From a virus: DNA of 64,000 nucleotides. The stretch lies in the IMG/VR virus record IMGVR_UViG_3300050821_003843, positions 1 through 64,000 of that record. The stretch is one strand, 5' to 3'. A program made the translations under genes and the position numbers. Of this stretch, positions 58,718-60,005 are shown one piece after another. Position 1 is the stretch's first letter. Each line of letters starts with the position of its first letter. The notes below the pieces were generated by a model that was given only the letters and a program-made list of their open reading frames with translations, searched no databases and was not told the DNA's origin.

Positions 58718-58769
58718 TTCCTTTGCGGGTTGACCGCAGTAAATTTCTCAATCCCTTAGGAGGTGTATT

Positions 58770-60005
58770 ATTCTAACCCAAGACTTTATTTTGAATGGGG
58801 AAACTCATGGTGAGTTTGCCGAACTGTTGCCAGGACTGCGATTTGACGTGGGTATGATGAAGCCCTTTTTCGACTCACGCAATCAACGGTGTGTAGTTGT
58901 GAATAGTGGTCGTAAGGTGTATTCTGAAACTTTGAAAGAATACGTCCCGATCTACGAAAAGAAACTCATCAAGGATCTAGTTGCGAATGGCATCGAATCA
59001 CCAGTCTTCAACGATACTACCTTGCGTAAGCAGGAATGGATTGAGTTGGATAAGGTGATTCTCCGTGCTGCACGATATCGGTTGCGAGCATGGGCAGACC
59101 TTGCGGCGCAATCGTCATTCGGCGGATTCGACGGTATGTCGAAAATGGTTCTCGAACACGAAACCATGTCAGATCCCGGTGAAGCAGTTCAGGATATGGA
59201 TGGCTTGGCGGATGGTCGTGCGGATACACCACGTTACCAACTGCAAGGCTTGCCACTACCAATTACCCATGCAGACTTTTGGTATTCCAAACGTCGCCTG
59301 ATGTTGTCACGCAACACGGGTACGCCATTGGACACCACGATGGGTGAGTCTGCTAGTCGTCGTGTAGCAGAAATGATTGAACGTAGCCTCATTGGTAACT
59401 CCACGGGGATTACCTATGGTGGAGCTAACAATCCAAGTTATGGTCGTACATCCACGGTGTATGGTTATACGAACTTCCCCGCTCGATTGACGTACTCAGC
59501 AGCCCATGCGCCAACAGAAGGTTCATGGACTCCTGCGACGCTATTGGCTGACGTATTGGCCGTGAAGCAGTTGTTGATTAACAACAAATTCTATGGTCCA
59601 TACATGATGTACACGTCAACGGATTGGGACAAGTATCTCGACAACGATTACTACGTCAGCATCACGTCGGGGGCAGTGGCACCAACCAAAACCTTGCGTG
59701 AGCGATTACGTGAGATTGATGGGATTCAAGACGTACGTCGTTTGGATCTGTTCTTCGCCAGTGCTCCAACGGCTGGTGGTCCAGGATATGCGAACTTGGG
59801 TTTGACCCTCAATCCATTCACGTTCATTCTGGTACAGATGACACCAGATGTTGCCCGTGCGGTGAATGGTATGGATATCAGTACCATTCAATGGGAATCT
59901 CACGGTGGATTGAGATTGAACTTCAAGGTTCTGGCAATTCAGGTTCCACAACTCCGTGCTGACTATTACAACAACTGTGGGATCGCCCAAGCCACGGTAA
60001 CTTGA
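58770..60005 (+). CDS. Major capsid protein (HK97 fold, encapsulin/linocin-like); probable AUU start
   Basis: TLRKQEWIELD, RLRAWADL, PLPITHADF, YGYTNFP, FYGPY, VPQLRAD; AGGAGG 6 nt before ATT. Confidence 0.9.
   Translation: MLTQDFILNGETHGEFAELLPGLRFDVGMMKPFFDSRNQRCVVVNSGRKVYSETLKEYVPIYEKKLIKDLVANGIESPVFNDTTLRKQEWIELDKVILRAARYRLRAWADLAAQSSFGGFDGMSKMVLEHETMSDPGEAVQDMDGLADGRADTPRYQLQGLPLPITHADFWYSKRRLMLSRNTGTPLDTTMGESASRRVAEMIERSLIGNSTGITYGGANNPSYGRTSTVYGYTNFPARLTYSAAHAPTEGSWTPATLLADVLAVKQLLINNKFYGPYMMYTSTDWDKYLDNDYYVSITSGAVAPTKTLRERLREIDGIQDVRRLDLFFASAPTAGGPGYANLGLTLNPFTFILVQMTPDVARAVNGMDISTIQWESHGGLRLNFKVLAIQVPQLRADYYNNCGIAQATVT

Follow-up and report, generated by a model that had tools for sequence, protein, structure and literature searches.

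The start site of the major capsid gene was analysed in an uncultured soil phage, represented by IMG/VR virus record IMGVR_UViG_3300050821_003843. The window (the whole stretch of DNA under study, 64,000 nucleotides (nt), positions 1 to 64,000) is the first 64 kb of a complete virus record of 72,917 bp that has terminal repeats and whose genes are otherwise intact. The capsid gene lies on the plus strand, and its proposed coding sequence at 58770..60005 would specify a protein of 411 amino acids (aa) with an HK97 fold and the Pfam domain DUF6260. Translation of this gene probably begins at an AUU codon. Such a start had been put forward in an earlier sequence-only reading of the window, and 58770 is its most likely place, judged by the register of the homologues, the strength of the Shine-Dalgarno (SD) sequence and a base that proved reproducible. 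The mechanism with the best support is ordinary SD-led initiation at a near-cognate codon.

Sequence context and homologue register of the capsid start

The reading frame of the capsid gene is closed upstream by an in-frame TAA at 58740..58742 of the plus strand. From this TAA to a TTG at 58791..58793, no ATG, GTG or TTG is present in the stop-to-stop frame (58743-60005). An extended SD, AGGAGGTG, is located at 58758..58765, with its AGGAGG core at 58758-58763, and the core is followed in frame by TGT ATT ATT CTA ACC CAA GAC TTT ATT TTG. The proposed AUU start codon, at 58770..58772, begins 6 nt past AGGAGG and occupies the column in which the homologues have their start codons. The first ATT of the pair (58767..58769) is an unlikely start, being 3 nt past AGGAGG and out of register with the methionine of the homologues. 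The TTG, separated from AGGAGG by 27 nt (58764-58790), is the first canonical start and the one used in the public 404-aa call (P0126); a GTG at 58848..58850 is used in two other public calls (385 aa, identical protein). The TAA, AGGAGG, ATT pair and TTG on which the sequence-only reading was built were all found where it had placed them. An out-of-frame mini open reading frame (ORF) of 9 codons (TTG...TAG, 58730-58759) terminates within the first bases of the capsid SD; it is devoid of an SD of its own and is probably due to chance.

SD strength was taken as the duplex energy of the stretch from -20 to -4 with the 16S 3'-tail motif. The energy was -14.0 kcal/mol before ATT 58770, -9.6 kcal/mol before ATT 58767 and -0.7 kcal/mol before TTG 58791, so that the TTG is without an SD. 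The strong SD before ATT 58770 is more than a chance occurrence. On both strands of the 72,917-bp genome, sites of -13.9 kcal/mol or lower were confined to two loci, the capsid gene and an ATG gene at 2016; one in 3000 random positions reached -14, and the mean of 45 gene starts was -5.9. Capsid SDs of the 21 properly placed relatives ranged from -4.2 to -11.4 kcal/mol and were all weaker than that of the window. Among the relatives examined, the window capsid gene thus has the weakest start codon together with the strongest SD. Its spacer of 6 nt is the same as in the relative L019 (AGGAGG-6 nt-ATG).

To place the start by homology, the first 120 residues of each of the best 120 homologues (from 1960 matches among 8000 scored candidates) were aligned to the window. 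Starts within 3 residues of the ATT-58770 column were seen in 101 of these 120 proteins (95 with M, 4 with V and 2 with L), and a further 14 start a few residues upstream of it. The usual N-terminus of the homologues is M-[FLY]-[TV]-Q-D-F-[IV]-L-N-G. The sequence-only reading had predicted M-x-x-x-D-F-I-L-N-G, and N-termini of this form (MLTQDFILNG, MFTQDFILNG, MFVQDFILNG) were indeed present. In the closest M-starting homologues listed, P0002 and P0129, the sequence is MLTQDFILNGETHGEF (MLTQDFILNG), to be compared with (I)LTQDFILNGETHGEF in the window; P0002 is 90% identical to the window capsid protein. M1, D5 and N9 are invariant or nearly so in an alignment of 31 sequences.

The start codons of the relatives were also compared on DNA. 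At the homologous place in 21 related viral loci the start is ATG in 20 and TTG in one, preceded by GGAG-type SDs. These loci were pooled with 35 metagenome loci to give 56, from which loci with no N-terminal match, those with an alignment starting after residue 8, duplicates and two without a placeable start were dropped. The 22 distinct relative starts that resulted comprise 21 ATG and 1 TTG and include no ATT (L067 was counted as ATG, which is visible in its sequence). A scan with a degenerate motif returned four stretches, of which one is a relative, with GTG as its start. Relatives compared on DNA reach at most 61% identity; P0002, P0129 and P0003-P0005 were compared as proteins only. Since none of the relative DNA starts is ATT, ATT appears to be the derived state of this phage lineage. 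Its confinement to one lineage fits a recent substitution that is tolerated or compensated better than a conserved regulatory device.

The base itself was checked in sequence of other origin. The stretch was present in one public run, a soil metatranscriptome library; a contig of 403 nt from it (depth 4.3) spans 58468-58870 and is identical to the window, and an ATG at 58770, for which the sequence-only reading had advised a check of reads, is not seen in it. DNA can occur in an RNA library; the library and the assembly are nevertheless separate from those of the window. Such RNA contigs show the presence of the sequence and not its translation. Grouped in the 90% protein cluster of the capsid protein are the 404-aa call of the window itself, starting at TTG, and the two 385-aa calls, which come from other assemblies (contigs of 60,544 and 73,031 bases) with an identical protein called from the internal GTG 58848. 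A canonical N-terminal start is thus missing from three assemblies, and gene callers differ on what to use instead. In a separate observation at window position 59065, an RNA-library contig has G>T at a depth of 3.6, which would change the nearly invariant Arg99 (CGT) of the capsid protein to Leu; the difference may reflect a true variant or an error due to the low depth.

The gene is an HK97-fold major capsid gene. Its product matches PF19774 (DUF6260) with 35.3 bits against a cut-off of 26.6, as well as PHROG 771, 'virion structural protein'. A profile of 31 capsid sequences matches encapsulin shell proteins of the PDB (E = 2e-4). The AlphaFold model has a mean predicted local distance difference test score (pLDDT) of 65, with residues 1-29 below 50, and with this model Foldseek retrieved encapsulins (E = 7e-14) and the capsids of phages Sf11, FCWL1 and TW1. 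In the nearest cultured phages, which are Brevundimonas phages, the homologue is annotated as major capsid protein (31% identity). Genes for terminase, portal, a MuF-like protein, a 954-aa head protein and a 164-aa protein lie upstream and small head-tail genes downstream, a position within the head-gene module.

Assignment of a host from the related phages was attempted and gave no host call. Related phage contigs (L091, L092 and L093; 65 kb, 74 kb) are filed in metagenome-assembled genomes labelled Opitutaceae, Dehalococcoidia and Peribacteria; these labels are mutually inconsistent and look like mis-binning of free phage contigs. The nearest cultured phages infect Brevundimonas, with a capsid identity of only 31%.

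Proposed initiation at AUU and competing readings

From the observed sequence, homology register, SD strength and reproducible base, we infer initiation at 58770, its efficiency and its compensation by the SD. The 8-nt SD, AGGAGGUG, would hold the 30S subunit and put the AUU, 6 nt past AGGAGG, in the peptidyl (P) site, where the initiator formylmethionyl-tRNA (fMet-tRNA) would pair with a third-position mismatch. The product would be the full 411-aa capsid protein, M-L-T-Q-D-F-I-L-N-G.... ATT would have replaced an ancestral ATG in this lineage only; the exceptional strength of the SD would make it tolerable and probably compensate for it in part. Each mRNA is expected to yield several-fold less protein than an AUG version would, and the 8-nt SD may partly offset this loss.

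Published values give a measure of what may be expected. In Staphylococcus aureus, the AUU and AUA starts of cvfC1, ccpN and infC all stand behind strong, extended SDs, and their output amounts to about 10% (up to 30%) of that of the AUG versions (PMC13009471). In Escherichia coli, AUU was 6- to 8-fold below AUG in a reporter, about equal to UUG (PMC3592434), and elsewhere outputs of 7.5% of AUG for AUA and 5% for AUU or AUC are given (cited in PMC5499595). Context, temperature and nutrients are reported to influence non-AUG initiation (PMC5499595). Going by these outputs, translation of the capsid mRNA should persist at a level reduced several-fold.

A number of points weigh against initiation at AUU 58770. 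Five of the best 120 homologues (P0006, P0008, P0067, P0070 and P0107) start downstream, P0070 exactly at the equivalent of TTG 58791 and the other four further on. ATT is not conserved beyond this one lineage and the 90% relatives P0002 and P0129 begin with M, so that selection for AUU is unsupported. A weak start codon on the highest-copy protein is counter-intuitive, and residues 1-29 of the model are of low confidence, so a shorter protein might work. The RNA contig, at a depth of 4.3, may stem from the same sample as the window, and the two other assemblies may have been built from the very reads that gave the window.

Loss of the ancestral ATG could instead have moved the start to TTG 58791, GTG 58848 or ATG 58854, leaving a capsid protein that lacks 7-29 N-terminal residues. 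We regard this as unlikely, though TTG 58791 is the first canonical codon, the public calls use either TTG (404 aa) or GTG (385 aa), and both the five downstream homologue calls and the low pLDDT of residues 1-29 would agree with it. The TTG is preceded by no SD and lies 27 nt from the strong SD, which would then serve nothing. A split ribosome-binding site in which a hairpin would place the SD beside TTG 58791 was also considered and rejected, the fold of 58735-58830 being no better than shuffles (z = -0.2). The N-terminus that would be lost is kept by 101 of the best 120 homologues, M1, D5 and N9 are (nearly) invariant in the 31-sequence alignment, and the shortened homologue calls may themselves be gene-caller artefacts of the same kind. 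An error of sequencing or assembly as the source of the ATT, or a defective variant with an unexpressed capsid gene, is very improbable. The record is a metagenome assembly, a single G-to-T change suffices for ATT, and the phage carries a thymidine hypermodification pathway, so that its DNA is probably chemically unusual. Against this, the same bases were obtained at the ATT from a separate library and assembly, two other assemblies also gave no canonical N-terminal call, and the genome is complete, has terminal repeats and is intact in its other genes. A modified T would not make G read as T, and the corresponding change in the polymerase gene described below would be G to C, so no single error mode would account for both.

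The hypermodification gene set mentioned above occupies 30613-34524, and also 36726-37862 and 38636-39358. It includes a 5-hydroxymethyldeoxyuridine (5-hmdU) DNA kinase (PF18723), an amino acid:DNA transferase (PF18724), a flavin adenine dinucleotide (FAD) oxidoreductase, a GNAT acetyltransferase, a thymidylate synthase-like enzyme and MazG. Hypermodified thymine is probably present in the virion DNA. Elsewhere in the genome, a two-domain S-adenosylmethionine (SAM) methyltransferase at 8638-9840 has no counterpart in four related phages, and it is adjoined by a radical SAM protein (7682-8641) that is shared with the related genome G005 only.

Non-canonical starts in other genes and the question of initiation fidelity

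All stop-to-stop ORFs of this genome (G000) and of four related phage genomes (G001, G003, G004 and G005) were compared. Of 51 ORFs with matches in this genome, 16 were flagged as having similarity that begins before the first canonical start. Detailed inspection covered the flagged ORFs other than ORFs 38627, 65984 and 71165 (gaps of at most 5 aa), four minus-strand shadow ORFs and, in G001, ORF 52569; in those inspected in this genome, an ATG aligned with the ATG of the relatives except for capsid, polymerase, resolvase and ORF 72095-72487. After removal of the shadow ORFs, 4 of 41 comparator-supported genes were without a canonical start before the conserved part, namely the capsid, polymerase and resolvase genes and a tape-measure gene that runs across the ends of the record. 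In the four relatives 13 of 154 were flagged, of which 4 are a frameshift ORF, 1 is at a record end, 7 have aligned ATGs by eye and 1 was uninspected. A one-sided Fisher test gave p = 0.009 for 3/41 versus 0/154 and p = 0.043 for 2/41 versus 0/154.

ORF 72095-72487 belongs to a tail assembly chaperone pair at genome positions 71703-72487, past the window (L086 8703-9487). It has no start of its own, is conserved from its first codons in 3 relatives and overlaps ORF 71703-72173 near an A-rich run (AAAAAAC), which is the classic arrangement for -1 frameshifting.

The sequence-only reading had named the polymerase and the resolvase as cases similar to the capsid gene. This held for the polymerase, with ATC 27695 rather than ATT as the codon, and stayed ambiguous for the resolvase. 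The family A DNA polymerase (PF00476, E = 7e-29) has its proposed start at ATC 27695 (27695..29794, plus strand). A 71-aa ORF in the same frame (27467-27682) lies upstream, and its TGA stop overlaps an SD-like AAGGAA at 27682-27687 (together 27680..27687, plus strand). After TGA 27680 the frame continues as AGG AAC AAG AAA ATC TTA GGA ATC GAC ACA GAG ACT, and up to GTG 27764 it contains no canonical codon. That GTG, the first canonical one, is 18 codons past the conserved ExoI motif DTET. The ExoI sequence GIDTET, at codons 7-12 of the open frame, is conserved in four relatives as well as in P0125; only a start at ATC 27695 or close to it would bring this motif into the protein. The public call P0124 (676 aa, from GTG 27764) omits it, with 23 residues cut. 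ATC 27695 aligns with the ATG of G003 (MLAIDTET) and is within one or two residues of the ATG or TTG starts of G001, G004, G005 and P0125. Its SD, AAGGAA with a 7-nt spacer, has -5.7 kcal/mol, average for the genome; the stop of the 71-aa ORF is 12 nt before the ATC, and coupling may thus help initiation. By its alignment and motif, a polymerase start at AUC 27695 would be a good second case. Recoding or readthrough of TGA 27680, joining the 71-aa ORF to the polymerase, would make use of their shared frame, yet it is less likely, since the relatives start their polymerase at an ATG or TTG of its own a few codons before DTET and readthrough is unnecessary.

For the RuvC-like Holliday junction resolvase (19125..19667, plus strand), the start is uncertain. 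In its relatives G-[IV]-D-P-G is preceded by 5 to 13 residues; a start at the canonical TTG 19170 would leave none. Candidates are ATT 19125 (SD AGGAAA, -5.6), CTG 19152, ATA 19164 and TTG 19170, among which the choice is ambiguous; CTG 19152 would give MSDTIFLGIDPG, similar to MSVKNIYLGIDPG in G003.

The sequence-only reading had further proposed that these starts tie expression to a relaxed initiation fidelity during infection. In such a reading, the AUU and AUC codons would act as regulators, capsid and polymerase output rising once discrimination dependent on initiation factor 3 (IF3) relaxes in infection, as might follow from a lower IF3-to-ribosome ratio upon host shut-off. This would be an extra layer on the AUU start, compatible with the best explanation given above. 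The need for a non-canonical start in two, perhaps three, of 41 comparator-supported genes, as against none found among 154 in four relatives, would be in keeping with it. So would the discrimination of IF3 against AUU starts, known for infC and pcnB (PMC13009471, PMC3592434), and the dependence of the activity of non-AUG mRNAs on nutrient state and ppGpp (PMC5499595). On the other side, no initiation factor, formyltransferase or known fidelity modifier was found in Pfam and PHROGs scans of 111 and 63 ORFs, and no initiator tRNA was detected. The codon is unconserved in the nearest relatives, unlike the infC or S. aureus cases, and the feature is shared by an early gene (polymerase) and a late gene (capsid), which speaks against a stage-specific switch. 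The regulatory reading is therefore highly doubtful, and a dedicated fidelity switch is unsupported.

A CsrA homologue at 24107-24307 (Pfam CsrA, E = 4e-24) is the one regulator of translation that was found. Since CsrA proteins recognise GGA motifs in ribosome-binding sites, the phage protein may act on translation of the host or of the phage itself. CsrA is also present in G001 and G004, whose capsid genes start at ATG (L006, L018).

A phage tRNA reading AUU was considered as well and rejected. ARAGORN, run without its intron option, gave no tRNA in the genome. A search of Rfam gave one tRNA-like element at 25894-25999 (40 bits) with a 36-nt insertion in the anticodon arm; it has a Leu-type D arm, normal acceptor and T arms and an extended anticodon arm with the loop UUCAAUU. 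AAU occurs in this loop only outside the standard anticodon register, and the 1:72 pair is G-C, which is elongator-like. A similar element in G003 has a different loop, and G003 uses ATG starts. That element, of 99 nt (L039 8478-8576), has the same T arm and a different insert, and lies just after the G003 resolvase.

The lineage may have moved at least two essential genes (capsid to AUU, polymerase to AUC, and perhaps the resolvase) off canonical starts because the host or the infected cell discriminates poorly against AUH codons (H being A, C or U). This is distinctly doubtful. If true, start-codon fidelity would be a host-range or infection-stage variable readable from a phage genome, and phages of this kind would report naturally on how stringent IF3 is in uncultured bacteria.

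Comparison with known near-cognate starts

If the starts proposed here are used, the public gene calls of this phage are in error, with 7 or 26 residues missing from the capsid protein and 23, the ExoI motif among them, from the polymerase. Gene finders that accept only ATG, GTG and TTG cannot repair these calls. The capsid site may serve as a natural test of the extent to which an extended SD can make up for AUU, and should the pattern in two or three genes reflect host stringency, the start codons of phages could report on translation fidelity in uncultured hosts. In a literature search over titles and the beginnings of abstracts within one library, no natural AUU start on a phage major capsid gene was met with.

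AUU, AUA and AUC starts behind strong SDs are already known as a kind. Like infC (IF3) and pcnB of E. coli, the window capsid gene has AUU in place of AUG behind an SD (PMC3592434, PMC13009471), and the same third-position mismatch with fMet-tRNA would be expected to make initiation inefficient and sensitive to IF3. In infC and pcnB the AUU is conserved and limits or autoregulates proteins of low abundance, whereas in the window it stands on the most abundant virion protein, in one lineage, and no feedback loop is evident. Start-codon mutants and constructs of phage genes offer a second comparison. An AUG-to-AUA mutant of T4 rIIB retains about 15% of AUG output, and AUA, AUU and AUC constructs of the murein hydrolase of phage HB-3 retain 5-7.5% (cited in PMC5499595), so that in both, as is expected for the window, a phage gene is still expressed. 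Those are laboratory mutants or constructs; the window, in contrast, is the natural consensus of an environmental phage, with an SD stronger than that of any relative examined. A third comparison is with cvfC1 (AUU), ccpN and infC (AUA) of S. aureus, in which an AUH start is likewise combined with a very strong, extended and start-proximal SD (PMC13009471). The S. aureus sites are known from retapamulin ribosome profiling and show conservation across species (PMC13009471), unlike the window site, which is unconserved and deduced from sequence alone. Their output, about 10-30% of AUG (PMC13009471), is a realistic expectation for the capsid gene of this phage.

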